A DNA stretch of 64,000 nt from an uncultured delta proteobacterium (GCA_963848135.1 CAWKCK010000009.1:62001-126000); one strand, 5' to 3'. Shown: positions 26,446-63,913, counted from the first letter of the stretch. A program made the numbers and translations. The notes: generated from the sequence alone by a model not told the origin.

Positions 26446-26856
26446 ATGTCGAAAGATTATGAAGTCAAACTGCGTGTACCATTCCACGATCTTGATCCTC
26501 TCCAGATCGTTTGGCACGGAAATTACATGAAATATTTTGACATGGCCCGATTCGGCCTTTTCAAACAGGCGGGTTTGGATCTGTACGAGTATTTTGTCAA
26601 TCAGCAGATTGTTTTTCCAGTTACCCGTTTTTCTTCCAAGCATATTATTCCCCTCCGCTATGACGACGAGTTTGTATGCAAGGCGACCGTTGTAGAAGCC
26701 GTGTATAAAATCGGCATATCGTTTGAAATCCGGTTGACCGCAAACGGACAGCTCTGCACTCGGGGAACCAGCGAACAGGTTGCCGTTAAAATGCCGGAAA
26801 TGGAGATGCAGTTTGAGATTCCGAGCGATATTACCACGGCATTGGGGTGCGCCTGA
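26446..26856 (+). CDS. Acyl-CoA/acyl-ACP thioesterase (4HBT/YbgC hot-dog fold, type found in APE clusters)
   Basis: VPFHDLDPLQIVWHGNYMKYFDMAR, PLRYDD. Confidence 0.88.
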   Translation: MSKDYEVKLRVPFHDLDPLQIVWHGNYMKYFDMARFGLFKQAGLDLYEYFVNQQIVFPVTRFSSKHIIPLRYDDEFVCKATVVEAVYKIGISFEIRLTANGQLCTRGTSEQVAVKMPEMEMQFEIPSDITTALGCA

Positions 26857-28598
26857 TGGATCTTAAGTTGCAAGATGCCTTTGCTGCCGGGTACGAACGG
26901 CTTTCGGCATGGGCGGATCTTCTGGACACCATCAATCTGTTTCCGGTTGCCGATCGCGATACCGGCCGAAACCTGTTGATCAGCCTCGCTCCATTGCATC
27001 GATTCGATTCGCGCTCGGAACACATTGCCAACAAACTGCTCCTTGGCGCCACCGGCAATTCCGGCAATATTGCGGCGTGTTTTTTCGCAGGCCTTGTTGA
27101 GGGAAAACCGGCTGCGAACATGTGCCGGGCCGTGAAGATCGGTAGAGATAGGGCGTGGCAGTCGATTGCTGATCCTAAGTCCGGCACCATGCTCACTGTT
27201 TTTGATGTCCTGCTGGACCATTTCGAGAACATGTCATCGATTCAAGGGGATGAGGGTTACACGACTTTGATCGATCGTTTGGAGAACGCTGTTCACTCAA
27301 CCGCTGAAACGCTGCCACGATTAAAGGCCGCCGGAGTCGTCGATGCCGGTGCACTGGGAATGTTCATTTTTCTGGAGGGCTTTTACGGTGTCCTTACCGG
27401 TTGGCCAAAGGACTTTCGCTCGATAACGGCAGCCTTCAATGACAAACTGCGGTTGCCTTCCGACTATATCACCGTTGAAGAAAAGGGCTATTGCGTCGAT
27501 ACACTCATTGAGATGGCCGCAGATTCCGATTCCTCGTTAGCAGGGTTGGCCGATTATGGAGAAAGCATCGTCGTTCATCGTGACGATGAGAACGTTAAAA
27601 TTCACCTCCATACGGAACATCGCGAAACCGTGCGCAAGCAGCTTGAAAGCCTGGGCAAAGTTGTGCAGTGGACGGAAGAGGACATGGGCGCTCGGAGCGG
27701 AAATCAGCCCGCACCCGGTATGCCGCCGGCGCTTCATATTGTTACCGATGCGGCCGGATCCGTTACACGGGACGATGCGGCCGGGCTTGGCATGACGTTG
27801 CTTGACAGCTATATTGTTTTTGACGGGGGCACGTCGCTGCCTGAAACATTGATAGCCCCAGAAGAGCTTTATGCGTTGATGCGAAAGGGGGCGCGGGTAA
27901 CCACGGCCCAGGCATCGGTATTCGAGCGTAACCAACGTTACCAGAGTATCATCAGTCGTTTTGGCTCAGCCCTTTACCTGTGTGTCGGTTCGGTTTACAC
28001 AGGAAACTTCCAGGCGGTGGCTACATGGAAAGAACATAACGATTCGTCCGACCAGTTGACTGTCATCGACACCGGCCTGGCATCTGGGCGCCTCGGTATC
28101 GTCGCCATCGCCACCGCCCGATATTCCTTTCAGGCCGACAGTGCTCAAGAGGTCATTGCGTTTGCTGAAGATGCCTTACGCCGAAGCGAGGAATATATCT
28201 TTCTTGACCGGCTTCAGTACCTCGCTGCCGGTGGAAGACTGTCAAAAACCAAAGGCTTTTTCGGGGACTTTTTCGGGGTTAAACCCATCATCAGCCCCAC
28301 GGTTGAAGGGGCTGTAAAGGCAGGCACCGTTCGAAATCGCAGCGAGCAGGTGGCTTTCGCACTGGAAAAACTCGAGCAGGGCCTGGGGCAGGATGTCGGA
28401 TCCACTATCATGCTGGAATATTCTGATAATCGCCGGTGGGTTGAAGATACGGTTCTGGGGGAAATTACGCGTCGCTACGCGTCGGCCGAGGTTGTCCTCC
28501 AGCCCCTCTCTCTGACTTCCGGTGCCCATATGGGTCCAGGGACCTGGGCAGTGGCGTTTTTGCCATGCCGCAGGCCTCCTCAACCCGTTAAAAAGTAA
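26847..28598 (+). CDS. DAK2 (FakA-like) - DegV (FakB-like) fusion protein
   Basis: N-terminal INLFPVADRDTG.N, GNSG, GTMLTV, GVVDAGA (DAK2/FakA). C-terminal IVTD, TTAQ.S, LAAGGRLS, GAHMGPG (DegV). Start is 26847 (GTG) or 26856. Confidence 0.85.
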   Translation: MRLMDLKLQDAFAAGYERLSAWADLLDTINLFPVADRDTGRNLLISLAPLHRFDSRSEHIANKLLLGATGNSGNIAACFFAGLVEGKPAANMCRAVKIGRDRAWQSIADPKSGTMLTVFDVLLDHFENMSSIQGDEGYTTLIDRLENAVHSTAETLPRLKAAGVVDAGALGMFIFLEGFYGVLTGWPKDFRSITAAFNDKLRLPSDYITVEEKGYCVDTLIEMAADSDSSLAGLADYGESIVVHRDDENVKIHLHTEHRETVRKQLESLGKVVQWTEEDMGARSGNQPAPGMPPALHIVTDAAGSVTRDDAAGLGMTLLDSYIVFDGGTSLPETLIAPEELYALMRKGARVTTAQASVFERNQRYQSIISRFGSALYLCVGSVYTGNFQAVATWKEHNDSSDQLTVIDTGLASGRLGIVAIATARYSFQADSAQEVIAFAEDALRRSEEYIFLDRLQYLAAGGRLSKTKGFFGDFFGVKPIISPTVEGAVKAGTVRNRSEQVAFALEKLEQGLGQDVGSTIMLEYSDNRRWVEDTVLGEITRRYASAEVVLQPLSLTSGAHMGPGTWAVAFLPCRRPPQPVKK

Positions 28599-28611
28599 GG
28601 TATTGCCTTTC

Positions 28612-29358
28612 ATGGCGCAAGTGACCGATATACCGATCGGCGGCATTAACCGCTGCAGGTTCGCCGTTGTTATCCCTGTTTACAACCATGATCGAACGAT
28701 TGTCGATGTGGTGCAACGAACACTGAATCTCGGTCTACCGGTAATTGTTGTGGACGATGGATCGACCGACGCAACGTTCAATAAGTTAAGCACCATCGAA
28801 GGGGTGCGGGTTCTGCGTCATCGCTATAACAGGGGCAAGGGAGCGGCCCTTTTGACCGGATTTACGGAGGCTGTTAAGATCGCCGATTGGGCGATGACCC
28901 TGGATGCAGACGGTCAGCACGACCCGGCGGATGCCAAGCACCTGATGCGTGCGATACCTGCGAGCCAACGGCCGATTGTCATCGGAAACCGTCAAGGCAT
29001 GGCCGGCGTTCATGTGCCGTGGACGAGCCGCTTTGGTCGCAAGTTTTCCAATTTCTGGGTCCGCGCTTCCGGCGGTCCGGTTGTGTCCGACTCTCAAAGC
29101 GGGTTCAGAGTGTATCCCCTTCCCGAAAGCCTCCGATTGGATGTTCGTTCCCGGCGATTTCAGTTCGAAGTTGAAATTCTGGCCAAAGCCAGGTGGAACC
29201 ATATTCCTGTTGTGGAAGCACCGGTCAGTGTGTCGTACCGGCCCGGTACACCCCGAATATCGCATTTCCACCCCTTTTTTGATTTTTTACGAAACTTCGG
29301 TCTCTTCAGCCGGTTAATCACCTATCGGGTTCTCACTCTGCGATTTTTGCAGGACTGA
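28612..29358 (+). CDS. Glycosyltransferase family 2 (APE/flexirubin-cluster type)
   Basis: VVIPVYNH, VVDDGSTD, NRGKGAAL, DADGQH, DSQSGFRVYPL, SHF.PF.DF. Confidence 0.92.
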   Translation: MAQVTDIPIGGINRCRFAVVIPVYNHDRTIVDVVQRTLNLGLPVIVVDDGSTDATFNKLSTIEGVRVLRHRYNRGKGAALLTGFTEAVKIADWAMTLDADGQHDPADAKHLMRAIPASQRPIVIGNRQGMAGVHVPWTSRFGRKFSNFWVRASGGPVVSDSQSGFRVYPLPESLRLDVRSRRFQFEVEILAKARWNHIPVVEAPVSVSYRPGTPRISHFHPFFDFLRNFGLFSRLITYRVLTLRFLQD

Positions 29359-29374: not shown

Positions 29375-30262
29375 ATGTCAGGCATTTTCTATCGGTTTCT
29401 AACATTTATATCCCGCATATTCGGGCTATGGATTTTCGACCTCACTGCCAAGGGTATCGCCGCAGGATATTATCTCCTGTCGCCACGCAGGGTATCGATC
29501 AGCGTTCGTTTTTATCGGGCGCTCTTTCCTGAAAGAAATCGATTATATCATCTGTGGTGTACCTGGAGACAGTTTCAAAACTTTACCTCCGTGTATGTGG
29601 ACCGGTTTTTGGTCAATGAAACCGATGGTATTACTTGTACCCACACGGGATGGGAGCATATCGAAGACGCCATTGAACGGAATACCGGCGGAATTATCGT
29701 GATGTCCCACCTTGGAAATTGGGAGATCGCCGCGCATTTGATGACCCGGAAATGGGGACAAATTCGGCTGATTTTGTACATGGGTATCCGCGCTAAGGCA
29801 GAGATCGAGCGCATTCAGAAAAACGATCTCGCAAAAAGGGGCGTGCGAATCATCGCGGTTGAAAAAGGATGGAGGACACCGTTCGATCTGATGGAAGGAT
29901 TGCGCTTTATCAAGTCAGGAGGATTGGTATCGATGACCGGCGACCTCGCGAGAGATCCCACTCAGCGGGTTGTTCCGGCGGCTTTCCTCGGGCGTGAAGT
30001 TCATCTGCCGGAGACACCCCATTTACTCGCCATGCTTACCGGCGCGCCGATTTTTTTCTTCTTTTCGCGCCGTGTCGGTAAAAAGCGCTATCATGTGACC
30101 CTGTCAGAGCCAAATACCATCCAGAAGGTGCCTCGTTCCGAAAGATCCGCTGTTCTGCACCGATCTGTTCAGAAATATGCGGATCTTCTCGAGATGAATC
30201 TCCATAAAAATCCTTTGGAATGGTATCATTTCGATAAGTTTCTTGGCTCGAGACTGAAATGA
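29375..30262 (+). CDS. Lipid A-type (LpxL family) lysophospholipid acyltransferase
   Basis: SHLGNWE, MTGD, FLGR, P.EWYHF motifs. Confidence 0.85.
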   Translation: MSGIFYRFLTFISRIFGLWIFDLTAKGIAAGYYLLSPRRVSISVRFYRALFPERNRLYHLWCTWRQFQNFTSVYVDRFLVNETDGITCTHTGWEHIEDAIERNTGGIIVMSHLGNWEIAAHLMTRKWGQIRLILYMGIRAKAEIERIQKNDLAKRGVRIIAVEKGWRTPFDLMEGLRFIKSGGLVSMTGDLARDPTQRVVPAAFLGREVHLPETPHLLAMLTGAPIFFFFSRRVGKKRYHVTLSEPNTIQKVPRSERSAVLHRSVQKYADLLEMNLHKNPLEWYHFDKFLGSRLK

Positions 30263-30548: not shown

Positions 30549-30567
30549 TTAGGCGATGAGACGCTAT

Positions 30568-30870
30568 ATGAAACGCGATGAGATAGAATCGGCTATTTTA
30601 AAGATTTTCAGCGAGAATTTTGAAATCGATGCCCCTGACGTCAATGAGGATTTGAGGGATGTTTACGAATTCGACAGTATCGATGCTATAGAACTTCTGC
30701 GCGAGATCGAGATCCTTCTCGAGACCCAACTGACCCGGCCGGAAAAGAAAAATGCCATGGAAATTCGAACCATCAACCAGATTGTTGACTATATAGAAAC
30801 ACTGGCCCTTGCGCGACGTTCTTCGGTATCGGACAATTCCGAAGAAGGTCAGAAAATAACGGAAATATGA
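30568..30870 (+). CDS. Acyl carrier protein (ACP-1)
   Basis: Acidic, ~100 aa, FDSIDAIELL phosphopantetheine-Ser motif, RTINQIVDYI. Start is 30556 or 30568. Confidence 0.88.
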   Translation: MKRDEIESAILKIFSENFEIDAPDVNEDLRDVYEFDSIDAIELLREIEILLETQLTRPEKKNAMEIRTINQIVDYIETLALARRSSVSDNSEEGQKITEI

Positions 30871-32108
30871 CGGCAAGACGGGTTGTCATTACAGGCCTCG
30901 GCGCGATAACGCCGATCGGCCGGACCCGGACAGATATACTTCGCCATCTGGTTGAAGGGATTTCCGGGGTCAAGAAGCTCCGTTCCGACGGGCTCCTCAC
31001 CGACCATATCCACTCCGGTGTTTACGGCACGGTGGACTATCCCCTCGATTACGATTTCAAACGCACCCACAGGAAAACCATGGGCCCGGTTTCCTATTAT
31101 GCCTGCCAGGTTGCAAAGGAGGCGCTGGAATCATCGGGACTCGATTCGGCGTTTATCACCTCGGGACGTCTCGGGGTTGCCTTTGGGTCGACCCACGGGA
31201 GTCCGTCGGTCCAGCGGAATATCTACAAAACATTTTTCAACGCATCCAATCGGCAATTTTCTTCCATCGGTGCGGTCGATTATCTCAAATCCATGGTTCA
31301 CACCACGGCGGTCAACATCACCAAGATGTTCGGTATCACCGGAAGGGTCATATCTTCTTCGACAGCCTGCACCACGAGCAGTCAGTCTATCGGGTTCGGA
31401 TATGAAACAGTAAAATACGGCATGCAGGATGCCATGCTTTGTGGTGGCGCCGATGAGTACGATACGACCACCGTGGCGGTGTTTGACAATCTTCTGGCGT
31501 GCTCAACGGAATTTAACCAAACGCCGCATATGACACCACGGCCATTCGACGAAAAGCGCGATGGATTGGTGGTCGGCGAAGGCGCCGGCGCTGTTTTGCT
31601 CGAAGAATTTGAGCATGCCAAAAAGCGGGGCGCCGACATCCTTGGGGAAGTGATCGGTTTCTCCTGCAACAATAACGGTGGTGACCTGATCCTGCCGAAC
31701 AGCCAGGGAATCACAGCGACCATTAAATTGGCCTTGCAAGATGCCGTCATTGATCCAGAATCGGTCGATTTTATCAGTGCTCACGCCACGGCCACCAAAA
31801 TGGGCGACGTGATCGAGGCCCAGGCCATCGGCAGTATATATGGAGACACAGCGCTGGTTGCAGGATTGAAAAGCTACATGGGGCATACCATGGGGTCCTG
31901 CGGCGCCATTGAAACCATTATCACCCTGTTTCTGATGGCGGAAGGATTTGTTCCTCCGACGCTGAACCTGGATAATGTCGATCGACGCTGTGCCATGATT
32001 CGGCACGCGGTTGAAATTATGGAGAAAAAGGTCCGGATCGCCGCTGTTCAAAATTTCGCCTTCGGCGGTGTGAATACCTGCATCATAATCCAAAAATTCG
32101 ACGCATAA
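30867..32108 (+). CDS. Beta-ketoacyl-ACP synthase (FabF/APE-type KS)
   Basis: RRVVITGLG, STACTTS (Cys), RPFD..RDGLVVGEGAG, SAHATAT, GHTMG, NFAFGG. Confidence 0.93.
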   Translation: MTARRVVITGLGAITPIGRTRTDILRHLVEGISGVKKLRSDGLLTDHIHSGVYGTVDYPLDYDFKRTHRKTMGPVSYYACQVAKEALESSGLDSAFITSGRLGVAFGSTHGSPSVQRNIYKTFFNASNRQFSSIGAVDYLKSMVHTTAVNITKMFGITGRVISSSTACTTSSQSIGFGYETVKYGMQDAMLCGGADEYDTTTVAVFDNLLACSTEFNQTPHMTPRPFDEKRDGLVVGEGAGAVLLEEFEHAKKRGADILGEVIGFSCNNNGGDLILPNSQGITATIKLALQDAVIDPESVDFISAHATATKMGDVIEAQAIGSIYGDTALVAGLKSYMGHTMGSCGAIETIITLFLMAEGFVPPTLNLDNVDRRCAMIRHAVEIMEKKVRIAAVQNFAFGGVNTCIIIQKFDA

Positions 32109-32125: not shown

Positions 32126-32914
32126 ATGAACGGCAGCGACTATTCCAGGTATCATCGACGGCTGCAACCCACCGTCGACTTTTCTCTTACCGTCTTGCTT
32201 TGGACTTATTTCACGGTCGGATTTGTCTTCTTCTTCTCTCCATTTTATCTATGTGCGCTGTTCTTTTCTTCGAACCGTGAGCAGACCTTCCAACATCTCA
32301 ATAGTCGGTTCTACAGAGGTTTTTTCGCTTTAACACGGGTGCTTATGCCGGGACATCGGTGGCGGATACCGCCTGAAGTGAAAGACATCCGTTCATCGGT
32401 TGTAGTTTGTAATCATCGATCGTACCTCGATTCGATCCTGTTGATCTCTTTATACGAAAAGCACAATACGATCGTAAAGCGTCGTTTGTTCGATATACCG
32501 CTCTTTGGGAAGATGTTGCAATGGTCCGGCTATATACCCTCATCCGCGGACGGTCGATTCGCCGAATTGATGATCCAACGGATCGAAACCGTGGATATAT
32601 TCCTGGCCGAAGGCGGGAATTTGATTATCTTTCCCGAAGGTACCCGGAGCAAATCAGGAAGGATCGGTAAACTCAACAAGGGGGCATTCAAAATCGCCCG
32701 CCGCTGTCGGGTACCGATCAAAGTTCTTTTTATCCGCAACACCGAGAAAATGTTTCGACCCGGATCTTTTTCCTTTGATACCCGGGGGCCCAACACCATC
32801 AGTCTCGATTTGATCGGCAGTATCGACACGGCGGAGGTGAGCCAGGCCGATGGCTTGAAAGAAATGATGACCCGGGTGCGGTCGATGCTTGAAACCGAGA
32901 ATAACTCTGGCTGA
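32126..32914 (+). CDS. 1-acyl-sn-glycerol-3-phosphate acyltransferase (PlsC family)
   Basis: NHRSYLD and IFPEGTRS motifs, KGAF. Confidence 0.9.
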   Translation: MNGSDYSRYHRRLQPTVDFSLTVLLWTYFTVGFVFFFSPFYLCALFFSSNREQTFQHLNSRFYRGFFALTRVLMPGHRWRIPPEVKDIRSSVVVCNHRSYLDSILLISLYEKHNTIVKRRLFDIPLFGKMLQWSGYIPSSADGRFAELMIQRIETVDIFLAEGGNLIIFPEGTRSKSGRIGKLNKGAFKIARRCRVPIKVLFIRNTEKMFRPGSFSFDTRGPNTISLDLIGSIDTAEVSQADGLKEMMTRVRSMLETENNSG

Positions 32915-35667: not shown

Positions 35668-35708
35668 AAATTCGGGTTAGATTTGTGCAACCGGTTCAAA
35701 AAAAAACC

Positions 35709-40330: not shown

Positions 40331-40427
40331 GGAGAACCTGTTGTTTGAGAAAAAAAGATTGAAAAGAGAGATGTTATTCAATAAAATGACAAGTTCCGGT
40401 CAAAACCCTATAGGGCTAACATTTTGT

Positions 40428-48715: not shown

Positions 48716-48716
48716 A

Positions 48717-49982: not shown

Positions 49983-49983
49983 T

Positions 49984-54041: not shown

Positions 54042-54791
54042 ATGTTGCCATCTAACGTGGACAAAACCAGGATCTCACCGTCAGTCGATGAGCTTTGGGC
54101 TTACTTCGATCGCATCTTCTGCATATCTCTGGAAGATCGCCCAGACCGGCGCCAATCGGCCCGGGATCAGTTTCGCAAAATTGGTTTGGCGGACAGAGTC
54201 GAGTTCGTCATCGTCAACAAACACCCGACCAACAGCGAGCAGGGGATATTTGAATCCCACATGAAATGCATCAGAATGGGTATCAAGGCCGCCGCTCAAA
54301 CCACTCTCATTTTTGAAGATGACGTCGTCTTTGACAGATTTAACACCTGTGTGCTGGAAGAATGTATACGTTTCTTGTCTTCGAAGATTTCGTGGAACAT
54401 CTTTTTCCTCGGTTGCCTCGCAGATGCCAGCCAAAAAACCGAATACGGGTCCGTTTTAAAAGTGCGTTACCGCGGCTTATCGCATGCGTACGTCATCAAC
54501 CGCAATTTTGCCGAATCCCTGGCCAGGCAGATCTGGAAAAATACGCCTTTCGACACGATGTTGCGGAAGCTGTCTCCTTACTATTATGCTGTTTACCCGG
54601 CATTTGCCTTTCAGAGCAATGCGCGCACGGACAATATGCGGCTGCTGAAGCGTGACCGAATGCGGCGGCTCTTTGGGGGACTTAAAAGAATCCAAAAGTT
54701 AAATGAATGGTATCTTCGCCACCGGTCAGTCGTCATCGGCATTCATATTTTCCTGATCCTGATTCTGCTGATACTGGTGGCCGCGCACTGA
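54042..54791 (+). CDS. Glycosyltransferase family 25-like protein
   Basis: IFCISLEDRPDRR, GIFESH, LIFEDD, HAYVI, C-terminal TM. Confidence 0.8.
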   Translation: MLPSNVDKTRISPSVDELWAYFDRIFCISLEDRPDRRQSARDQFRKIGLADRVEFVIVNKHPTNSEQGIFESHMKCIRMGIKAAAQTTLIFEDDVVFDRFNTCVLEECIRFLSSKISWNIFFLGCLADASQKTEYGSVLKVRYRGLSHAYVINRNFAESLARQIWKNTPFDTMLRKLSPYYYAVYPAFAFQSNARTDNMRLLKRDRMRRLFGGLKRIQKLNEWYLRHRSVVIGIHIFLILILLILVAAH

Positions 54792-54811
54792 GCTGTGGAT
54801 TGTTTCCAACA

Positions 54812-57800
54812 ATGAAAAGAACATCGATAAACTGGCTTTTCCTGGCTGTGACCATTCTGCTGGTAAGCGGTCTGTTCGGGATCGGATGGCACCGGATTCA
54901 GATCGATACCGATATCGTCGGCGCTCTTCCGGATAGTGATCCCGTGATTGCGGACGCCGCCTATCTGTTTCGTCATCACCCCATGCAGGGCCAGGTGGTT
55001 ATCGACGTCTTCCTCGATAAGACCGATTTAGAGGCTCTGATAGCCTGTGCCCGAAAGGTTCAAAAACGTTTGAAGGCCAGCGGACTGTTTAAAGCGGTCG
55101 GTATCGAGGACACCGGAAAACTCATGCCGGATCTGCTCGATTATGTATCTGTCAACCTGCCGGTGCTCTTTACGGCCGATGAATTGCGAGATCTGATTCA
55201 ACCGCTCCTGCAGCCGGCTATGATCAATCAACAGCTTGAACAGATCCGCTCCAGCCTGCTGGGGCTCGACAGCATCGGCCAAACGGCCCTGATCGCAAAA
55301 GATCCATTGGATTTTCGGCGTCTGGTGCTCGCACGGTTATCGCATCTGGCTCCATCAACCGGTGCCCGCATCTATCGGGGCCAACTCCTCTCCGCCGATG
55401 ACCGGCATATTCTGATCGTTGCCAGACCGGTTGCTTCCGGCACGGACACGGTTTATGCCAGCCAGTTAACCGAATTAATGAATGACCTGTCGGTAGAACT
55501 CAACCGGGAGTATCGGCCGGCCGGACAGCGGGTGACGCTGACACCGGTTGGTGCATACCGTTCCGCCCTCGACAATGAGCAGATAATCAGGAAGGATGTC
55601 ACTTACGCCATCGCCCTGGCCACCCTCGGTATCGCCATGCTGCTATTATTTGCTTTTCCGCGGCCGGCCATCGGTCTTTTTTCCCTGGTGCCGGCTGTTG
55701 CCGGAACCATGCTAGCCCTCTTTGTCTTCTCCCTGTTTCATAAGTCCCTATCGATCATGGTTCTCGGCTTTGGGGGGGCCATCATATCGATCACCGTCGA
55801 CCAGGGAATCGCCTATCTCTTGTTTCTTGATCGACCCTACGATACCAGCGGGCGGGAGGCCTCAGAAGAAGTGTGGAACATCGGTCTGCTGGCCGTTTTG
55901 ACCAGCATCGGCGCCTTTGGCGCGCTCTGCTTCAGTGGGTTTTCCGTGTTTGTTCAGTTGGGGCAGTTTACAATGCTCGGTATCGCGCTATCCTTTCTTT
56001 TCGTGCATGTCATTTTTCCCCACATTTTCCCGCGCATGCCGGCGGGCCGACCACGATCCCTGCACCTGCAGAAGGTGGCTGACGCCTTAGCCCGAACAGG
56101 GACGAGAGGACTGTGGGTCGCGGTCGTATTCGCCTCTGTTATGCTGATATTCGCCCAACCCGAGTTTAATGTCAGCATGCGGACCATGAACACCGTGGGC
56201 GCCGATACCATTGCCGCCGAGAAATTGCTCGCTGATGTTTGGGGTGATATATTCTCCAAAGTTCATTTGCTGGCGGAAGGCCAGAGTATTGCAGCGCTTC
56301 AGGCCAAGGACGATATCCTTCTCGATCAGTTGGATCGTGATTTGGCCTCCGGGGTTCTTTCATCGGGGTTTGTGCCTTCCATGCTCTTTCCCAGTCACGA
56401 GCGTCGGAAAAACAATTTTAACGCCTGGAAGCAATTCTGGAATGGTGAAAGAGTTGAGAGCCTCGAGAGAACAATCGGGGAACAATCGGCGGCGCTTGGT
56501 TTTGCCCCAGGGGCTTTCTCGCCCTTCTATGAAATGTTGAGTGCGGTTAAAGCCCCCGGAATGAACGTTCCAATTCCTGCCGAATTTCTCAGTTTTCTGG
56601 GAATTTCAGAACTTGCGGGCGAATCGAAATGGATCCAGGTATCGACCTTCACCACCGGCCCGGCATATGACGCCAAGCAGTTTCATGATACTTACGGGGC
56701 ATCGGGCCGGTTGTTCGATCCGGCGTTCTTTTCGGAGCGACTCGGGAAGCACCTGTTCGATACGTTCTCGAAGCTGTTTCTCATTATTGCGGTCAGTGTC
56801 ATCATTCTGCTCATTTTTTTCTTTCTTGACCCCGTGCTGGTTATCATCTGCTTGTTGCCGGTGGCGTTTGCTTTAATTTCGACCCTTGGAACGTTGAATA
56901 TCATCGGGCATCCCCTGGACATCCCGGGACTGATGCTGTCCATTATCGTTTTAGGTATGGGCATCGATTATTCGCTCTTTTTTGTGCGGTCGTTTCAACG
57001 TTACGGGGCGTTGGCTCATCCGTCATTTGGTCTGATTCGATTGGCCGTTTTCATGTCGGCAGTTTCCACCATGATCGGTTTCGGTGTCTTGTGCGGTGCC
57101 GATCATACACTACTGAAAAGCGCCGGCATCACCTCTCTTTTAGGCATCACATATTCGGTGATCGGCGCCTATGTCATTCTGCCGCCGGCACTCAGTTATG
57201 TTCAGCGGCGGCGCCGCTCGAAAACGATCAAGAGTGGTCGTTTGCGGGATCGGGTCTTGAGCCGCTATCAGGGCCTGGAAGCCTATCCGAGATTATTTGC
57301 GCGGTTCAAAATGCGCCTCGATCCCATGTTCTTAGAAATAGCGGAGATTTTTAAGACCAGTGGCGATATTAAAACGATCATTGACATCGGTTGCGGATTT
57401 GGTGTGCCGTCGTGTTGGCTTCTCGAAAGGTTCCCGCATGCGGAGCTGTTCGGTATCGAGCCGTCTGCCGGCCGTGTCAGGGTTGCCTCCGTTGTGGTGG
57501 GTGGAAGAGGGGACATCACTCAGGGCCGGGCACCGGATATACCTGCGGTCTCGCGGGCAGCCGACCTGGCCATGATGCTCGATATGGTTCATTTTTTAAA
57601 CGATGAAGACCTGGTTCTGACCCTGGGAAGATTGCATGATCGCCTGCTGGATAACGGTCGGTTAGTCATTCGGGCGGCCGTCCGTCCGCGACGGCGTTTT
57701 CCATGGGCATGGTGGCTGGAGAATTTTAAGCTCTGGCTGTCCCATGTTCCCGTCTGCTACCGATCACCGGAACGATTGAAAGTCATGGTGTCCCAGGCGG

Positions 57801-57907
57801 GATTTCGCATCGAGAATACGCTGCCTTCCGGCAATCACCAAGAACTCGTCTGGCTCATCGGGTGCGTTGACGCTGGTTCTGGTCCACGATTGACAGGCCA
57901 ATGCTGA
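54812..57907 (+). CDS. MMPL/RND-family exporter fused to a C-terminal class I SAM methyltransferase
   Basis: Two TM bundles with SITVD / GMGIDY, STMIGFGVL; C-terminal IDIGCGFG, LDMVHFL. ATG 54812. Confidence 0.88.
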   Translation: MKRTSINWLFLAVTILLVSGLFGIGWHRIQIDTDIVGALPDSDPVIADAAYLFRHHPMQGQVVIDVFLDKTDLEALIACARKVQKRLKASGLFKAVGIEDTGKLMPDLLDYVSVNLPVLFTADELRDLIQPLLQPAMINQQLEQIRSSLLGLDSIGQTALIAKDPLDFRRLVLARLSHLAPSTGARIYRGQLLSADDRHILIVARPVASGTDTVYASQLTELMNDLSVELNREYRPAGQRVTLTPVGAYRSALDNEQIIRKDVTYAIALATLGIAMLLLFAFPRPAIGLFSLVPAVAGTMLALFVFSLFHKSLSIMVLGFGGAIISITVDQGIAYLLFLDRPYDTSGREASEEVWNIGLLAVLTSIGAFGALCFSGFSVFVQLGQFTMLGIALSFLFVHVIFPHIFPRMPAGRPRSLHLQKVADALARTGTRGLWVAVVFASVMLIFAQPEFNVSMRTMNTVGADTIAAEKLLADVWGDIFSKVHLLAEGQSIAALQAKDDILLDQLDRDLASGVLSSGFVPSMLFPSHERRKNNFNAWKQFWNGERVESLERTIGEQSAALGFAPGAFSPFYEMLSAVKAPGMNVPIPAEFLSFLGISELAGESKWIQVSTFTTGPAYDAKQFHDTYGASGRLFDPAFFSERLGKHLFDTFSKLFLIIAVSVIILLIFFFLDPVLVIICLLPVAFALISTLGTLNIIGHPLDIPGLMLSIIVLGMGIDYSLFFVRSFQRYGALAHPSFGLIRLAVFMSAVSTMIGFGVLCGADHTLLKSAGITSLLGITYSVIGAYVILPPALSYVQRRRRSKTIKSGRLRDRVLSRYQGLEAYPRLFARFKMRLDPMFLEIAEIFKTSGDIKTIIDIGCGFGVPSCWLLERFPHAELFGIEPSAGRVRVASVVVGGRGDITQGRAPDIPAVSRAADLAMMLDMVHFLNDEDLVLTLGRLHDRLLDNGRLVIRAAVRPRRRFPWAWWLENFKLWLSHVPVCYRSPERLKVMVSQAGFRIENTLPSGNHQELVWLIGCVDAGSGPRLTGQC

Positions 57908-58818
57908 ATACCGTTAAAAAGACATCAGATGATTGCCTGCCGCTATCCATTGGGGACCGGGTCGGTGGCGGTGCGTTTATAATTGCCACTCTGCTGGCCT
58001 TGGTGGATATCCGTCTGGCGGCGATCCCACTGGCGGGATTTGTTATCCTGTGTTTTGTGGCACCGTTTTTACCGGGCGTCGGCTTTTTTCTCCCTATTGT
58101 CAGTCGGGGGTCATCCGGCCGGGACGCGGTGGCCTTAACCTTCGATGACGGGCCCGACCCACTGACCACACCGGAACTCTTAAGGCTGCTAAAAAAACAC
58201 GGGGCGACAGGCACGTTTTTTGTTAATGGCCGTAAGGCCAGCGAATATCCTCAGTTGATAAAGAAAATCCTCAGCGATGGGCATTGTGTGGCCAATCACA
58301 CATTCAACCATGACGTGTTTATGGCATTCAAGGACAAACAAACTGTGATGAGCGATATCGACGCTGTCCAGAATGTGCTGCGCAAACACGGTATCGTGCC
58401 GCTCGCATTTCGTCCACCGGCGGGAATAACCGGCCCAAGGCTCCAGCCGGTTTTGCAGGCAAAGGGGATGTATACCGTGAATTTCAGTTGCCGGGCGCGG
58501 GATGGCGGTAACCGGTGGCTGAGACATCTGTCCGAAAAAATCCTGCGACGCATCAAGCCTGACGATATCGTTCTCCTGCACGACATCCCACCCCAATCCG
58601 ACGCCTTGTTTTCTTTCTGGATTGAAGAAGTCGACCGTATTTTAGACGGCATCCGAGCGAAGGGTCTGGTTGTTCTCCCGTTGGCAGAGCTTATTGGTCG
58701 GCCGGTGATGAAAATGTTCGCCGAGACGGAAATGGGGGGCGCCGTTTCCGAGAGGCATACAGAAAGCATAGAGTCAAAATCCGGAAACACTCCCAACGAA
58801 GACATGGCGTCTTCTTGA
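57901..58818 (+). CDS. Polysaccharide deacetylase (NodB/CE4 family), membrane anchored
   Basis: VALTFDDGP, TFFV.G, NHTFNH, FRPPAG, IVLLHD. Confidence 0.92.
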   Translation: MLNTVKKTSDDCLPLSIGDRVGGGAFIIATLLALVDIRLAAIPLAGFVILCFVAPFLPGVGFFLPIVSRGSSGRDAVALTFDDGPDPLTTPELLRLLKKHGATGTFFVNGRKASEYPQLIKKILSDGHCVANHTFNHDVFMAFKDKQTVMSDIDAVQNVLRKHGIVPLAFRPPAGITGPRLQPVLQAKGMYTVNFSCRARDGGNRWLRHLSEKILRRIKPDDIVLLHDIPPQSDALFSFWIEEVDRILDGIRAKGLVVLPLAELIGRPVMKMFAETEMGGAVSERHTESIESKSGNTPNEDMASS

Positions 58819-59085: not shown

Positions 59086-60423
59086 CTATTTGTCGTTCCG
59101 TCCGCGATGATGGAAATATAACCAACTCAGCAGGACGGTGCCAGTAAAAAAAATCAGCAGCATTGCCGTTTCAGGAAATACGCTCTGGATGGTCCCATTG
59201 CGGGCAAACAGATCGACAAGGGCGTTCAGCCCCCAAGCCAGAGGTGACGCCTGGCTGATCTGCTGCATCAGTTTTGGCATGGCATAAACCGGTACCATGA
59301 TGCCGCCAATGGCCGCTGCAATTACGACTGAAACGGCACCAAACATGGACGCCTGCTCGTATGACCGGGCGATTGTCCCCAAAAGAATGCCGTAGCCCGC
59401 AGCGGCCAGAGCGGCGCTGGTGACGACGACAGCGATCGCCAGGGGTGCGGCGCCGATTTCCAGGACCGGTGTTCCCAAAAGCGGCAAAAAGAGCTTACCC
59501 ACTGCCAGGATAAGGGCAAACTGGATACAACAGACCAGTACATATGCGCAGACTTTTCCGCCGAGAATGGTCAAATAAGAAACTGGAAAACTCATCAGCC
59601 GCAGCAGAGTGCCATCCTGTTTCTCCCTGATCAGTGAGCCGCCCATTGGCACAACAATAAAGAACATCCCGAAGAGGGCCCAGGCCGGTACGTTTTGCTG
59701 AACCGATGAGGGAAGCTTCCCGGTGCCTCCGCGTCCTGCTTGCAGGGATTCGATTTCTAGAAGCCGCTCCCGGCCCCACTCCGGGTTCATCGCCGGGAAG
59801 GGGGCGCTGACAGCACCGGCGTTCTTCGGGCCAACGGTGTTCAGCAGGATTTTCTCCATTTGACGCGGAAATATTTCGGAAACAGCCCGGGCCTTCATTT
59901 CCAATTCAAGGGTGAGCAATATTCTGTAGAGGGCATTTGTCACGGATGTTCGGAACGTCCCTTGCACTAGAGGGTCGAAGAGAACCATCACGCGCGGCAT
60001 TTCGCTGGTTCCTTCCGCTGCGCTGTCTCCAGCGTCGAAGGCCGATAAGATCTGCCGGTTGAGACGGTCTTGAACGGCCTCGGTGGCCCCGGCGGGGATG
60101 ACGACGGCAAACTGAAAATCACCGTCTTCTAACGCCGCGTGGGCGGTTTTCTCATCCACCGTCCGTCCGACAATCTCTTTCGTCATTTCGATCGTACCCG
60201 ACTGCTGCAATTGTTCCTCTATGACCTTTCCCAGCCGCTGGCGATCCTGGTCGACAAACAGGACCCGGATGGTCGTTTCGCCCGTTACCTTGAGGATGTT
60301 TTCCTGTACCAGCGACACCACCACAACGAGTACGGCTGGCATGAGAAACAGGACCAGCAGGCCGGCTCTATCCCGCCTGAGTATCAGGAGTTCCTTTAGT
60401 ACAGTGGCCATGAGCCGTGTCAT
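59086..60423 (-). CDS. ABC-2 type transporter permease (flexirubin/DAR-cluster type)
   Basis: KEL.IL.RD..GL..LFLMP, SVQQNVPAWALFGMFF, GGIMVP...MP. Confidence 0.9.
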   Translation of the reverse strand: MTRLMATVLKELLILRRDRAGLLVLFLMPAVLVVVVSLVQENILKVTGETTIRVLFVDQDRQRLGKVIEEQLQQSGTIEMTKEIVGRTVDEKTAHAALEDGDFQFAVVIPAGATEAVQDRLNRQILSAFDAGDSAAEGTSEMPRVMVLFDPLVQGTFRTSVTNALYRILLTLELEMKARAVSEIFPRQMEKILLNTVGPKNAGAVSAPFPAMNPEWGRERLLEIESLQAGRGGTGKLPSSVQQNVPAWALFGMFFIVVPMGGSLIREKQDGTLLRLMSFPVSYLTILGGKVCAYVLVCCIQFALILAVGKLFLPLLGTPVLEIGAAPLAIAVVVTSAALAAAGYGILLGTIARSYEQASMFGAVSVVIAAAIGGIMVPVYAMPKLMQQISQASPLAWGLNALVDLFARNGTIQSVFPETAMLLIFFTGTVLLSWLYFHHRGRNDK

Positions 60424-60429
60424 AGTAAC

Positions 60430-61191
60430 TCAATCCCTCAGTTGTTTGCCCGTGAGCAAAAGAAAAAGCCCGCCCAAGTCTACACAGCCTGGGTGCCGGG
60501 CGACCAATTTCGACGGCGGTCCTTGGATGATGATATTTCCCTGATCGATGACGGCCACACGCGAGCACAACGACTGGGCCTCTTCCATGTAATGGGTGGT
60601 GTATATCATGCCGGTTCCTTGCTTTTTGAACCTGTTCAGCATCTCCAGAATCATATTACGCGACTGGGCGTCGATACCAACCGTCGGTTCATCCAAGAAC
60701 AGAAGGTCCGGATCATGAAGAATGCCTGCGGCGATGTTGGCCCGCCGTTTCATGCCGCCGGAATAGGTAACCACCCGTTTGTCAGCGCTGGTCGTCAGAC
60801 CGACCAGGTCAATGCATTCATCGGTACGGTCTTTGAGCTTTCGCCCTTTTAATCCGGCCATTCGACCGAAGAAACTTAGATTTTCGCGACAAGTCAGGTT
60901 TGGATAAAGAGCGATCTCCTGGGGCACCAGGCCAAAATGTTTTTTGGCCTTGCGGGTTTTTTTGAATAAATCGATTCCGCATATCGTCACATCACCGCTA
61001 TCGGGTTGCATCAGGCCGCTCATAATAGATATCGCCGTGGTTTTACCGGCGCCGTTGGGGCCCAGCAGGCCCAGGGCCTCACCCTCTTCGACATGCAGGT
61101 CTATATTCTGGAGCGCAGGTATGGCCTCACCTGGATATGTTTTTCGCAGCCGTTTCGCAACGAGAGGTCGCCTTGGCCGTGTTTCCACCAT
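60430..61191 (-). CDS. ABC transporter ATP-binding protein
   Basis: GPNGAGKTT, YSGGMKRR, LDEPTVG, YTTHYMEEA. The real start is probably ATG 61191. Confidence 0.93.
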   Translation of the reverse strand: MVETRPRRPLVAKRLRKTYPGEAIPALQNIDLHVEEGEALGLLGPNGAGKTTAISIMSGLMQPDSGDVTICGIDLFKKTRKAKKHFGLVPQEIALYPNLTCRENLSFFGRMAGLKGRKLKDRTDECIDLVGLTTSADKRVVTYSGGMKRRANIAAGILHDPDLLFLDEPTVGIDAQSRNMILEMLNRFKKQGTGMIYTTHYMEEAQSLCSRVAVIDQGNIIIQGPPSKLVARHPGCVDLGGLFLLLTGKQLRD

Positions 61192-61450
61192 GCTAAAGTA
61201 CTTTCCTTGGGGTTGACTTTTTGGTCGGAACCTATAAAAAAGCTCCTTTTTAGTGTATATATAACCCAAACCCTGCCGATATCGAAGCAGAAAAATTTCA
61301 TATATCTGAATCACACCCGTTTGATCCCTGCCGACAGTTCCCACCTCGCGGAGCCAGGTGGGCATGATATGATAAAAAATTTTTCACCGTCAGGGCTAAC
61401 ACGAGAGACCCTGTTTCGCCAATGGGCCGGTTCAAGGTGCTATCAAACCG

Positions 61451-62746
61451 ATGAAGATACTGCTCATAAACCCACCCAATAGCGGCAAGAGCATTCCTGA
61501 GGAAGTCTACGGTATTCGTAGTATCAAGATGATTTTCAGGGGTGAGCCTCTATCGCTTGAGGTTCTTGCCGGAAACCTATCCGGTCACGAGGTTCGTATC
61601 GTCGATTTAAAGGCCGATCCGGAGGCCCTGGAGGTCTGTTACACCGCGTTCGACCCCGAAGTGGTCGGTATTACAGGGGTTACCTGTGAGGCAAATGCGG
61701 TTCTAAAGATCGCTGCGGACATTAAGCAGCATTCAAATCCGGTTGTCGTCGTCGGCGGGCACCATGCTTCGTGCGATCCTGAATTCTTCAACCGCGAAGT
61801 TGTCGACTATATTGTCACGGGTCTGGGTAAGCTGAGCTTTCGCGAACTGGTGGATACGCTGGAGCACGAAGATGCTACCGCCGATATCGCCGGTGTCGCT
61901 AAAACTGAACCGGGGCGACCCCTTTTTTTCCGGCCGCGCCGGTTCACGGCCGCGGATCTGGTAGACGACGCAGCACCACGCTATGATCTGGTCGAACATC
62001 ACCGGGCCCTGTATGTCATGAGCGGTGTCGGTGGAAAAGCCGGATTCGTGGCCACGGCTTTCGGATGCACCCATAGCTGTCTTTTCTGCTCGATACCTAA
62101 CATGACCGGTGGCCGTTACCTGACTCACAGTGTCGAAGCGGTCTTACGTGACATGCGGTTGTTGAAGGATGTGCCCCTTATCCGCCTGGTAGACGCCAAC
62201 ACTTTCGGTGATGCCAAGACTGCCAAAATGCTCGGTCAACGGATCATCACAGCCGACCTCAAAAAGCACATCGTGGCGGATGTGCGCGCGGACACGGTGG
62301 TTCGACATCCGGACCTCTTTAAAATATGGCGGCAAGCCGGTCTTACGGCAGCGGTCATCGGCTTTGAGGAAATCAGTGATGAGCGCCTCGCCTACCTAAA
62401 CAAGCGCACCGATGTTTCCACCAATATCGCCGCCATGGCGATTCTCAAGGAACTCGGCATAAAGATCATCGGTGATTTCATTATTTCGCCAGACTATTCG
62501 GAAACTGATTTCGACCGTCTCGAACAGTTTGTCAGCGCCAACGCCATCGATTTGCCGCTGCCTGCCATCCTGACGCCACTTCCCGGAACACCGCTCTACG
62601 AAATATGGCGAGAGAAAATCACCATCCCCGATCTGGATTATTATACCTTTACCAACGCCGTGATACCAACGCGGATGGATGAAAAGGAATTCTACCAGGT
62701 ATATTCAGATCTTTTGGAAAAATTTATCGGACATTTAAAACACTGA
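61451..62746 (+). CDS. B12-binding-domain radical SAM protein
   Basis: MKILLINPP, EPL.LE.LA, VVGGHHAS, GCTHSCLFC, GFE, LTPLPGT. Confidence 0.9.
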   Translation: MKILLINPPNSGKSIPEEVYGIRSIKMIFRGEPLSLEVLAGNLSGHEVRIVDLKADPEALEVCYTAFDPEVVGITGVTCEANAVLKIAADIKQHSNPVVVVGGHHASCDPEFFNREVVDYIVTGLGKLSFRELVDTLEHEDATADIAGVAKTEPGRPLFFRPRRFTAADLVDDAAPRYDLVEHHRALYVMSGVGGKAGFVATAFGCTHSCLFCSIPNMTGGRYLTHSVEAVLRDMRLLKDVPLIRLVDANTFGDAKTAKMLGQRIITADLKKHIVADVRADTVVRHPDLFKIWRQAGLTAAVIGFEEISDERLAYLNKRTDVSTNIAAMAILKELGIKIIGDFIISPDYSETDFDRLEQFVSANAIDLPLPAILTPLPGTPLYEIWREKITIPDLDYYTFTNAVIPTRMDEKEFYQVYSDLLEKFIGHLKH

Positions 62747-62764
62747 AGAGGACAAAGACCTTTA

Positions 62765-63913
62765 ATGGACGTATTTATAAACGACATCGCTGCATTTCTG
62801 CCGAATGATCCTGTCGACAACGATACCATCGAGGACGTTCTCGGCCGAATCAATAATATCCCTTCGAAAGCCAAGCGGATTGTATTGAAAAACAACAAGA
62901 TCGAAACGCGCTATTATGCGCTTGACGCAGCCACCCGACGCTTGACCCACAACAACGCCCAGTTGACGGCTGCCGCCATCCGCGGGCTGAAACCCTATGC
63001 TACGTTCAGTCCGGCAGATATCGAGTGCCTTTGCTGCGGCACCACTAGTCCGGACTTTCTTTTTCCGGGTCATGCGCTGATGGTTTTAGGTGAGTTGGGG
63101 ATTGCTGAATGTGAAGCTGTGACGACTGCCGGCATCTGTATTTGCGGCATGACCGCTTTGAAGTTCGCGTTTATGAACATTGCCGCCGGCTTGTCCACCA
63201 ACGCAGTGGCCACCGGGTCCGAGTTGGCGGCTTCTTTTTTAAGAGCCGATTTTATGACCCCTTTTCTCACCGAAGGGGACGAGACCGACTTGACCCGCCA
63301 ACCTGTGCGTGCCTTTGACGCCGATTTCCTGCGCTGGATGCTTTCGGATGGTGCCGGGGCGGTGTTTTTGTCCAATCGGCCGAATCCCGACCGGATTTCA
63401 CTTAAAATCGAATGGATTGATCACAGCTCCTATGCTGGGAAGTTGGAAACCTGCATGTATTCCGGCGGCTTCAAAGCAGAAGACGGGCGGGCCATCGGCT
63501 GGCGTGAGAACGAGGACATCGGCCCCGAATCACGTCCCTATCTGTTCGCCGTGCGGCAGGACATCAAGCTGCTTGACAAACATATAGTGGCTACCATGGG
63601 AAAGGCGCTGTCGTCCGTGGTGACCAAACGCCGAATAACTCCGGAGGAGATCGACTGGTTCCTGCCGCATTATTCCTCGGCCTATTTCCGGCCGAAGTTT
63701 TACGATGAGATGAAACGGATCGGGTTCCATATCCCTTACGACAAATGGTTCACCAACCTGGCACAAAAGGGTAACACGGGCAGCGCGGCCATCTTCATCA
63801 TTCTGGAGGAGATTTTCAAATCGGGGAACCTGCAAAAGGGGCAGAAGCTGCTCTGCTTCATACCGGAAAGTGGGCGTTTTTCACATTGTTTTATGTTGGT
63901 GACGGTCGTGTGA
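62765..63913 (+). CDS. darB: DarB/StlD-family beta-ketoacyl-ACP synthase III
   Basis: VFIN..A.FLPN.PV.N, R.VL..N.I..RYYA, AGICICG, FDADFLRWMLSDGAGA, LPHYSS.YF, WFTNL...GNTGSA, PESGRFS: signatures of the dialkylresorcinol/stilbene-pathway KSIII. Confidence 0.88.
   Translation: MDVFINDIAAFLPNDPVDNDTIEDVLGRINNIPSKAKRIVLKNNKIETRYYALDAATRRLTHNNAQLTAAAIRGLKPYATFSPADIECLCCGTTSPDFLFPGHALMVLGELGIAECEAVTTAGICICGMTALKFAFMNIAAGLSTNAVATGSELAASFLRADFMTPFLTEGDETDLTRQPVRAFDADFLRWMLSDGAGAVFLSNRPNPDRISLKIEWIDHSSYAGKLETCMYSGGFKAEDGRAIGWRENEDIGPESRPYLFAVRQDIKLLDKHIVATMGKALSSVVTKRRITPEEIDWFLPHYSSAYFRPKFYDEMKRIGFHIPYDKWFTNLAQKGNTGSAAIFIILEEIFKSGNLQKGQKLLCFIPESGRFSHCFMLVTVV

Follow-up and report, generated by a model that had tools for sequence, protein, structure and literature searches.

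The window analysed here is a 64,000-nucleotide stretch from an uncultured delta proteobacterium (GCA_963848135.1; G000:C9:62001-126000, where G000 is the source genome, 98.65% complete), and positions are counted from the window start unless a contig is named. From 26446 to 63913 it carries an island of type II fatty acid synthase (FAS-II) and polyketide synthase (PKS) genes interspersed with genes for radical S-adenosylmethionine (SAM) enzymes. Every gene listed for this island in a first-pass annotation was found in its place by open reading frame (ORF) listing and by Pfam and NCBIfam scans of the window. There are three acyl carrier proteins (ACPs; 30556, 40568 and 44842), seven genes of the ketosynthase (KS) family (30867, 34552, 35484, which is a chain-length factor (CLF), 40831, which is a KS–CLF fusion, 47465, 48675 and the StlD/DarB member at 62765), three dehydratase units (39884, 44441 and 50442), FabG, two thioesterases (TEs), two acyltransferases, two glycosyltransferases, LolA, MMPL, an ABC exporter, a deacetylase and six proteins with a CxxxCxxC motif (33046, 36436, 42996, 45146, 46215 and 61451). 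Four of these six have a B12-binding-type domain in Pfam (B12a, 33046; B12b, 36436; B12c, 42996; B12d, 61451); Pfam detected no such domain in the other two, rSA (45146) and rSB (the 46215 ORF). We also found genes beyond that list, namely a FakA/FakB-like fusion (26847), a polyhydroxybutyrate (PHB)-depolymerase-type esterase (52209) and conserved unknowns at 37768 and 53329, as well as two domain fusions, a phosphopantetheinyl transferase (PPTase) on the PKS-type dehydratase and a methyltransferase on MMPL. The Cys-His-His triad is kept in KS1, KS2, the N-terminal half of KS3, KS4, KS5 and KS6, and is not kept in CLF2, the C-terminal half of KS3 and CLF6.

The island, put at 37 kb or more by the first-pass annotation, is bounded on the left by pxpABC and extends roughly 4.5 kb beyond the window along its contig (CLF6, KS6, ACP4, DarH and DarG at G000:C9:126344-130471), giving a total length of about 42 kb. 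Gene order from 26446 to 58818 mostly recurs in five of eight fetched relatives (G001, G003, G008, G035 and G030), partially in G029 and G037, and for the central block only in G027, indicating that the island is not a chance grouping. Close homologs of its proteins come from records named Desulfobacterales, which makes a member of this order the most likely source, and its guanine–cytosine content (53% versus 50–51%) gives no sign of recent transfer. In a scan of 58700–64000, promoter-like sites were at chance level (6 versus 4.0, s.d. 2.1) and terminator-like sites numbered 17 versus 6.7 in shuffles. A search for RNA holders covering 44400–50400 listed none. We conclude that the island is a real, widely conserved and uncharacterised lipid-building type of sulfate-reducer-type bacteria. 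This cluster type in general has been on record since 2009 (excerpts of PMC2649909); what is new here is that B12d sits in the slot of darA. In keeping with the first-pass view that the product is uncharacterised, the literature searched, with most subscription journals outside it, describes neither a product of the island nor a radical SAM partner of darB.

The right end of the window, where the dar module begins, reads as follows.

59086..61365, minus strand: ABC-2 permease and ATPase of the dar module (Pfam; beside darB/darH in relatives)
61451..62746, plus strand: B12d, B12-type radical SAM enzyme occupying the slot of darA and put forward as a stand-in for DarA (Pfam; neighbour and genome surveys)
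62765..63913, plus strand: StlD/DarB-family condensing ketosynthase (NF005293, 529 bits, cut-off 450; NF053539, 452 bits, cut-off 550)

DarB makes carboxy-cyclohexanediones, which DarA-type enzymes aromatise with loss of CO2 (excerpts of PMC6836626, PMC10088813 and PMC13748660). In two relatives, G016 and G037, the gene before darB encodes a 306-aa protein with an ESM Atlas match to clusters named DarA (0.98, the names being automatic). In G000 this position, directly before darB, is occupied by B12d. The G016 DarA query, which recovers DarA at 35–59% in other families, found none in G000 at E ≤ 1e-5 (best tblastn E value, 0.98). The first-pass annotation, which had listed DarB and likened the scaffold genes to aryl-polyene and flexirubin clusters, missed both the absence of darA and the radical SAM gene in its slot.

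Across genomes the two partners replace each other. Fourteen of 40 relatives carry darB, nine of them with B12d and without darA and five with darA and without B12d. In an even 300-genome sample of the phylum, darB was present in 21 genomes, with B12d directly upstream in 9, darA directly upstream in 11 and a darA fragment at a contig end in G128; B12d orthologs (52–57%; next tier 38% or less) were found in none of the 279 darB-negative genomes. A test set chosen on darB alone, comprising 41 further genomes from a 300-genome order sample, divided into 20 with darA and 21 with B12d, with no overlap. Taken together, the 77 darB genomes (including G000) comprise 40 with B12d (one copy broken) and 37 with darA, none clearly carrying both. 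B12d is the gene immediately upstream of darB in all but two of the 40 (38 genomes), the exceptions being G004, at a contig break, and G360. Metagenome contigs contained 24 loci with B12d at 50% or more; darB came next in all 15 loci with a visible next gene, and darA was seen in none of them. Two of these loci have a DarB sequence identical to genomes already counted. The 77 genomes are not independent, because kin share labels, and repeated changes of partner are a stronger point than the counts. In a DarB tree built by a quick method (LG+G4, no bootstrap) from 75 genomes, G017 and G600 being omitted from the 77 as partial, there are seven partner changes, at least four of them forced by branches with support of at least 95. 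We conclude that darA has repeatedly been exchanged for a B12-type radical SAM gene in Desulfobacterota.

The rest of the dar module is shared. The accessory genes past the window match NF053550 (465 bits, cut-off 300) and NF053536 (148 bits, cut-off 70) for DarG/DarH, and DarG, DarH and the ABC pair are kept in both B12d-type and darA-type modules. In other organisms the genes immediately behind B12d–darB include those for candidate tailoring enzymes, a carbamoyltransferase and a protein with a beta-lactamase fold (L187:8499-10352 and L284:4870-6702). In G000, darG is followed by genes for two small TRL-like proteins (G000:C9:130826-131525; L001:12826-13525), which are syntenic in G001, G003 and G008.

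B12d probably acts on the DarB product in one way or another, and we lean towards the view, drawn from gene context, that it replaces DarA by aromatising the carboxy-cyclohexanedione through radical oxidative decarboxylation. StlC aromatisation is accompanied by decarboxylation (excerpts of the review PMC6836626). Reasoning from the reaction, the ring carbon that adjoins the carboxylated one carries a hydrogen beta to the carboxylate; B12d would abstract this hydrogen, CO2 and one electron would be lost, and the resulting ene-dione would tautomerise to a resorcinol. There are precedents: CgdH/AhbD carry out radical SAM oxidative decarboxylation of propionates (excerpts of PMC10114771), and BchE, a B12 radical SAM enzyme that does not methylate, acts as an oxidase in place of an unrelated enzyme (excerpts of PMC13598231). 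B12d has a Pfam B12-binding match of 53.5 bits (cut-off 32.1) and scores far below the cut-off of all named methylase models in NCBIfam. Its structure model (predicted local distance difference test (pLDDT) 89) is nearest to AprD4 (Z 34.4, root-mean-square deviation (r.m.s.d.) 2.9, 400 aligned, 19% identity), followed by MgmA (Z 30.1), TsrM and OxsB. AprD4 is not known to need cobalamin. The fold shared by the B12d model and AprD4 does not itself show function. DarA is also present in these anaerobes, so that oxygen independence is not established as the reason for the exchange.

The radical SAM pair without B12 domains lies at the centre of the island, in a cassette of its own.

44842..45132, plus strand: ACP3, the carrier reserved for the twin radical SAM cassette (immediately precedes rSA in 73 of 80 loci; mean identity 74%)
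45146..46237, plus strand: rSA, radical SAM enzyme without B12 domain, with a twitch-like C-terminal Cys set and AGAEP for GGEP (motifs; fold search)
46341..47339, plus strand: rSB, rSA paralog (30%), most conserved cassette gene (alignment, genome surveys); 46341 is the conserved start of the 46215 ORF, giving 332 aa
47465..49982, plus strand: KS4 and KS5, paralogous FabF-like ketosynthases (42%), each with Cys-His-His (NCBIfam; residue check)
49879..50463, plus strand: thioesterase TE2, YbgC/FadM family (NCBIfam, over cut-off)
50442..51968, plus strand: PKS-type dehydratase fused to a PPTase (Pfam PS-DH, 4PPT_N and ACPS; His motif)

This set of ACP, twin radical SAM, twin KS, thioesterase and dehydratase genes is almost invariant. 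Orthologs of rSA at 65% or more occur in 18 of the 40 relatives, and a scan of species genomes returned at least 590 genome stretches encoding an rSA relative, including one from Desulfobacter vibrioformis DSM 8776. Among the best 80 of these stretches, a sample that leans to close relatives because the best were kept, rSB is present in 75, ACP3 in 74, KS4 in 65, B12c in 59 and KS5 in 58; ACP3 comes before rSA in 73 (3 contig ends) and rSB after it in 70 (5 contig ends). In the phylum sample both paralogs lie on one contig in 23 genomes, and one further genome has a single distant relative, excluded from the cassette count (G078:C23; L126:9897), which sits one gene behind a DNA polymerase III alpha gene without a FAS-II cassette. 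B12c orthologs at 50% or more (protein query) occur in 19 of the 23 cassette genomes versus none of the other 277. The radical SAM and FAS-II genes are thus co-conserved, in support of the first-pass annotation. In D. vibrioformis (L090) the cassette is rearranged, with rSB about 7 kb from rSA and KS4/KS5 absent from the 21 kb read.

The two radical SAM paralogs share 30% identity, KS4 and KS5 42%. Five C-terminal auxiliary Cys residues, in the pattern C..CC-x5/6-CxxC, are invariant in 87 of 87 rSA and 87 of 87 rSB rows, and the Pfam scan of the island found no match to the SPASM model in either protein. The rSA model (pLDDT 76; under 50 in the Cys region) has anSME, BlsE and SkfB as its nearest folds (Z 13.0–13.3, r.m.s.d. 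3.6–4.0, 230–255 aligned, 9–17% identity). A motif AGAEP, invariant in 85 homologs, stands in rSA where rSB and most radical SAM enzymes have GGEP. A relationship of rSA to tetraether synthase (Tes/Mss) was considered and rejected (32 bits versus a cut-off of 450; rank 15 in the fold search). PlsY is encoded in 18 plus 3 of the 102 loci. We infer that the cassette would yield a radical-modified acyl chain bound for a glycerolipid.

The remaining island genes resemble an aryl polyene lipid (APEL) cluster, with additions.

26446..26856, plus strand: thioesterase TE1, ApeK-like (Pfam 4HBT; best G000 match of E. coli ApeK, 30%)
26847..28598, plus strand: FakA/FakB-like fatty-acid kinase fusion (Dak2 + DegV), candidate acyl-phosphate source (Pfam Dak2, FakA-like_M and DegV; under the FakA/FakB1 cut-offs of NCBIfam; syntenic in relatives)
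28522..29358, plus strand: GT2 glycosyltransferase, N-terminal half of the ApeJ equivalent (best G000 match of E. coli ApeJ, 32% over 227 aa)
29375..30262, plus strand: LpxL-type acyltransferase, second half of the ApeJ equivalent (Pfam; synteny); a 563-aa form in G035 suggests that the halves are fused there
30556..30870, plus strand: ACP1, ApeF-like (Pfam PP-binding; weak PRK05350 match; DSID motif)
30867..32108, plus strand: KS1, ApeR-like, Cys-His-His intact (40% to E. coli ApeR, the two being reciprocal best among the KS proteins compared; PRK09116, 404 bits, cut-off 470)
32126..32914, plus strand: PlsC-type acyltransferase, ApeD-like (Pfam; match to E. coli ApeD)
33046..34536, plus strand: B12a, B12-type radical SAM enzyme, optional partner (Pfam, CxxxCxxC, NCBIfam; usually beside PlsC in neighbour counts)
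34552..36413, plus strand: KS2 (triad intact) and CLF2 (catalytic His absent) (Pfam; residue check)
36436..37701, minus strand: B12b, B12-type radical SAM enzyme of a very large, highly conserved family (Pfam; CxxxCxxC)
37768..38430, minus strand: putative lipoprotein adjoining LolA, apparently in an ApeN/LolB-like position (no Pfam/NCBIfam match; syntenic)
38427..39083, minus strand: LolA-like chaperone (ApeL / LolA2_flexi, under cut-off; Pfam, NCBIfam)
39067..39822, minus strand: FabG/ApeQ ketoreductase (Pfam, NCBIfam, match to E. coli ApeQ)
39884..40381, minus strand: ApeP-like dehydratase (Pfam ApeP-like; match to E. coli ApeP)
40568..40834, plus strand: ACP2, ApeE / PRK09184 type (NCBIfam; match to E. 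coli ApeE)
40831..42999, plus strand: KS3–CLF fusion, ApeO/ApeC-like, highly reducing type II KS (PRK09185, 314 bits; C-terminal half without both His)
42996..44345, plus strand: B12c, B12-type radical SAM enzyme, TIGR04072 member (378 bits, cut-off 360)
44441..44821, plus strand: ApeI-like dehydratase (Pfam; match to E. coli ApeI)
52209..53276, plus strand: PHB-depolymerase-type esterase, sporadic passenger (NCBIfam; in 10 of 80 loci)
53329..53682, minus strand: small conserved hydrophobic protein (no Pfam match; in 29 of 80 loci)
54042..54791, plus strand: GT25 glycosyltransferase (Pfam)
54707..57907, plus strand: MMPL/RND exporter, ApeM-like, with a C-terminal class I methyltransferase domain (Pfam; weak ApeM match)
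57901..58818, plus strand: polysaccharide deacetylase, FlxP-type position (Pfam; flx gene tables in excerpts of PMC3992019)

Compared with the E. coli ape cluster (locus L132), island proteins match ApeD, E, F, I, J, K, L, M, O, P, Q and R at 23–45% identity, and for eight of these twelve (ApeD, E, I, J, K, O, Q and R) the island gene is the best match in the whole G000 proteome, so the Ape/flexirubin-type scaffold of the first-pass annotation holds. The core set is present (ApeO/ApeR KS, CLF, ACPs, ApeI/ApeP, ApeQ and the ApeM transporter), the CLF being the C-terminal half of the KS3 fusion. The Pfam scan annotated no enoyl reductase within the island, which fits polyene chains. For dedicated aryl starter loading of the ApeH or FlxA/FlxY type, no ApeH match was found among island proteins. 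Genes for an aromatic amino acid lyase, an AMP ligase, a phytoene-desaturase-like flavoprotein and PlsY flank the island in some relatives. The best G000 match to the relatives' lyase (33%) lies on contig C17 among genes that, read by eye, are hut-operon-like, the best match to a relative's island ligase is partial (29%), and a tblastn search of G000 with the phytoene-desaturase-like genes of two relatives found nothing at E ≤ 1e-8. For G000 the lack of starter genes leaves an aryl head group unsupported. Two PlsY genes lie outside the island in G000; these two similar genes are on separate contigs (G000:C8:8603-17510 and C17:603083-605502), each near ispH-like sequence, and the C8 copy adjoins what, by eye, appear to be squalene–hopene cyclase and HpnN-like genes. 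The FakA/FakB system is known from Gram-positive bacteria; a FakA/FakB-like fusion (26847-28598) is a steady member of such islands in Desulfobacterota. At E ≤ 1e-100 the orphan family of B12b numbers 6113 proteins or more, one of which, from Allochromatium palmeri, stands at 80%. Outside the island, two small ORFs (95 and 94 aa, no Pfam match) lie at window positions 13262-13842, between fumarate reductase/succinate dehydrogenase genes and recR.

The gene content of the scaffold, the conservation of the cassette and the exchange of darA are observed; the chemistry of each is inferred. With moderate confidence, and judging from gene content, we favour a reading in which merged modules follow Ape/flexirubin logic to build a polyene-containing lipid, exported and probably located in the outer membrane, which radical enzymes independent of O2 would tailor. 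Going by APEL genetics, KS3–CLF, FabG and the ApeI/ApeP-like dehydratases would extend a chain on ACP2 to a polyene. KS1 would make a second chain on ACP1, which the PlsC-type enzyme would transfer to a lysolipid. The GT2 and LpxL-type enzymes would add a sugar and acylate it; MMPL and LolA would export the product. In the cassette, KS4/KS5 and the PKS-type dehydratase would build a chain on ACP3, rSA/rSB would oxidise, desaturate or cyclise it on the carrier, TE2 would release it, and the FakAB-like fusion with a PlsY could place it on glycerol phosphate. DarB would join two acyl chains to a carboxy-cyclohexanedione, B12d would take over the job of the missing DarA to give a resorcinol, and DarH may join a polyene acyl chain to this resorcinol. 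In Xenorhabdus, the APEL is a glycerol-phosphate–GalNAc lipid with a conjugated acyl chain added via ApeD and an aryl polyene via ApeJ (bioRxiv 10.1101/2020.12.19.423268; excerpts of PMC8253772).

Several points weigh against this reading. The product is a prediction from gene content, and because the modules are separable, one merged product is plausible rather than established. In the scaffold, no island protein matches E. coli ApeA, B, C, G, H or N, the ApeL and ApeM matches are weak (ApeM, 23% over 149 aa), and lyase, AMP ligase, phytoene-desaturase-like and PlsY genes of the relatives' island type were not found in G000, which leaves starter and anchor uncertain. In the dar module, the 306-aa DarA of G016 has no Pfam or NCBIfam match, its label resting on ESM Atlas and position; four darA calls (G017, G019, G128 and G479) are fragments at contig ends; G323 was surveyed except for 72 kb; G317 has B12d together with a weak partial DarA-like match far from darB (31% over 202 aa); and G360 has B12d only as a copy with stops on another contig, no darA, and darB behind an unrelated signalling gene. 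The best NCBIfam match of B12d is the methylase HpnR (165 bits versus a cut-off of 650), most B12-type radical SAM enzymes are methylases, and methylating and non-methylating members have no clear structural or sequence mark between them (excerpts of PMC12931638). Mutual exclusion of darA and B12d would also be expected if both enzymes competed for one intermediate and made different products.

The strongest rival, which in our estimate falls somewhat short of probable, is that each module yields a product of its own (respectively a membrane acyl chain modified by radical chemistry, a glycolipid resembling APEL, and a resorcinol, free or esterified) and that the modules only happen to be clustered in this lineage. 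In the phylum sample, 6 of the 23 cassette-bearing genomes have darB, as do 15 of the other 277, the dar module lies tens of kilobases from the core in G001 and G008, and three Smithella loci (L084, L109 and L111) have the cassette and PlsY with no MMPL or LolA nearby. Islands with KS2–CLF2–B12b–TIGR04072 and dar genes lack the twin cassette in the stretches read from G317, G235, G191, G088 and G125. The single pathway with a battery of six radical SAM enzymes proposed in the first-pass annotation thus gives way to separable modules. However, within the genus darB tracks rSA (9 of 10 genomes with rSA versus none of 5 without), rSA, rSB, B12d and darB are consecutive in L071, and the only PPTase domain of the island lies in the cassette. 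Separate products would also be compatible with the proposed role of B12d.

For that role the main rival, a serious one although we consider it unlikely, is that B12d is a cobalamin-dependent C-methylase of the cyclohexanedione or its alkyl chains; the methylated dione would be diverted to a non-aromatic product, which would exclude darA. The B12-binding domain and the HpnR match fit a methylase, as do homologs auto-named 'hopanoid C-3 methylase' in some sources and the methylases MgmA, TsrM and CysS among its structural neighbours, and the complementary distribution of darA and B12d is equally compatible with it. Yet the top structural match is a dehydratase, AprD4, ahead of MgmA, the same DarG, DarH and ABC pair in both module types suggests the same downstream acceptor, and a methylase could coexist with darA, which is not clearly the case in any of the 77 genomes.

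An ordinary aryl polyene or flexirubin pigment, to which the radical SAM genes merely add methyls, is improbable: the scaffold is near-complete, dar genes are present, and lyase and ligase genes lie beside the island in some relatives, but G000 has neither these island-type starter genes nor darA, rSA/rSB lack a B12 domain and the rSA model has its nearest folds in the SPASM/twitch group, and an ACP, two KS, a dehydratase and a thioesterase belong to the cassette itself.

A ladderane-type pathway to cyclobutane or other ring-bearing fatty acids, a link raised in the first-pass annotation, is very improbable: B12c is over the cut-off of TIGR04072 (rSAM_ladder_B12), chain 9s5h_B tops the PDB sequence matches of KS3 and KS2 and phytoene-desaturase-like genes flank relatives' islands, but the margin of 9s5h_B over Iga11 or ordinary FabF is small (199 versus 186 bits; 149 versus 148 bits), G000 has no phytoene-desaturase-like gene of the relatives' type, dehydratase 44441 is ApeI-like, and, according to excerpts of PMC2649909, no ladderanes were made under the conditions tested by Desulfotalea psychrophila, which carries a related island. 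The B12c score is near the cut-off, with the G317 and G235 copies at 607 and 672. The best KS3 matches are 9s5h_B, 6kxd, 7f28, 1j3n and 6qsp, and equal catalytic residue spacing suggests that 9s5h_B is amxFabF2. ACP3 and the 44441 dehydratase matched no PDB chain recognisable as anammox by the names shown. Several traits of anammox Cluster I (kuste3603-3608) are missing, among them a phytoene-desaturase-like enzyme, which Pfam did not find in the island; in common with Cluster I, the island is a FAS-II cluster that includes a B12-type radical SAM gene and a catalytically dead paralog of FabF. Further islands, at L136, L137, L142, L146 and L153, combine FAS-II, ACP and LpxL-type genes with between two and four genes for B12-type radical SAM enzymes; the twin cassette is absent from the stretch read.

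Returning to merged modules with B12d as aromatase, the exchange gives one orphan enzyme a specific substrate and reaction. If B12d is an aromatase, its reaction would be new for radical SAM enzymes, and resorcinol lipids would be expected in many anaerobes of sediments; assays of DarB and DarA with N-acetylcysteamine (SNAC) substrates are established (excerpts of PMC13748660), which makes the idea easily testable. More tentatively, B12d in place of DarA, together with an rSA/rSB pair that assembles, on a separate ACP, an acyl chain bearing rings or cross-links, may define an undescribed class of anaerobic envelope lipid, and would then offer a model amenable to culture for the kind of radical chemistry of fatty acyl chains proposed for ladderanes.

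The individual enzymes have named counterparts at a distance. The rSA model is nearest in fold to the SPASM/twitch enzymes anSME, BlsE and SkfB, and rSA also has a C-terminal Cys set, whereas rSA/rSB are a tandem paralog pair behind an ACP, with their own Cys pattern and low identity. Among non-methylating enzymes, AprD4 is nearest to the B12d model and CgdH/AhbD would resemble it in the proposed step; unlike these and BchE, B12d would act on another class of substrate, and it scores far below every curated cut-off. The 'ladderane candidate' FAS-II clusters of Kuenenia stuttgartiensis and D. psychrophila (PMC2649909, PMC4790861, PMC10139942 and bioRxiv 10.64898/2026.05.19.726425, each in excerpt), compared by published descriptions and PDB chains, likewise have FAS-II paralogs with a dead FabF/CLF, a TIGR04072 enzyme, a deacetylase, a glycosyltransferase, an MMPL-like protein and no settled product, whereas G000 differs in its ApeI/P-type dehydratases and is without a phytoene-desaturase-like gene or an island-type acyl-CoA ligase.

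As a whole, the island is closest to two families of clusters. With the APEL clusters apeA-R of Xenorhabdus doucetiae and E. coli it shares the twelve Ape counterparts, LolA/MMPL export and the lack of an enoyl reductase; it differs in having no match for the six other Ape proteins, in fusing the CLF to KS3 and splitting ApeJ, and in adding extra ACPs and KS pairs, the FakAB fusion, six radical SAM genes and the dar module. With the flexirubin and arcuflavin clusters (flx, dar) of Chitinophaga pinensis, Flavobacterium johnsoniae and Azoarcus BH72 it shares a DarB-family KS, DarG, DarH, the ABC pair, a dedicated KS/CLF/ACP set, a deacetylase, LolA and an exporter (excerpts of PMC3992019 and PMC3949708), whereas it has a radical SAM gene for darA and an added twin cassette, and G000 has no FlxA/FlxY-type starter genes. 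The island therefore works like an APEL or flexirubin cluster but departs from them in two defining features, the aryl starter genes and DarA. Clusters with darB and without darA are listed as having no known product in excerpts of PMC6836626 and PMC10088813. As in DarA/DarB and StlC/StlD, a DarB/StlD member over the NF005293 cut-off lies directly behind its partner gene, but here that partner is a B12-type radical SAM enzyme unrelated to DarA.

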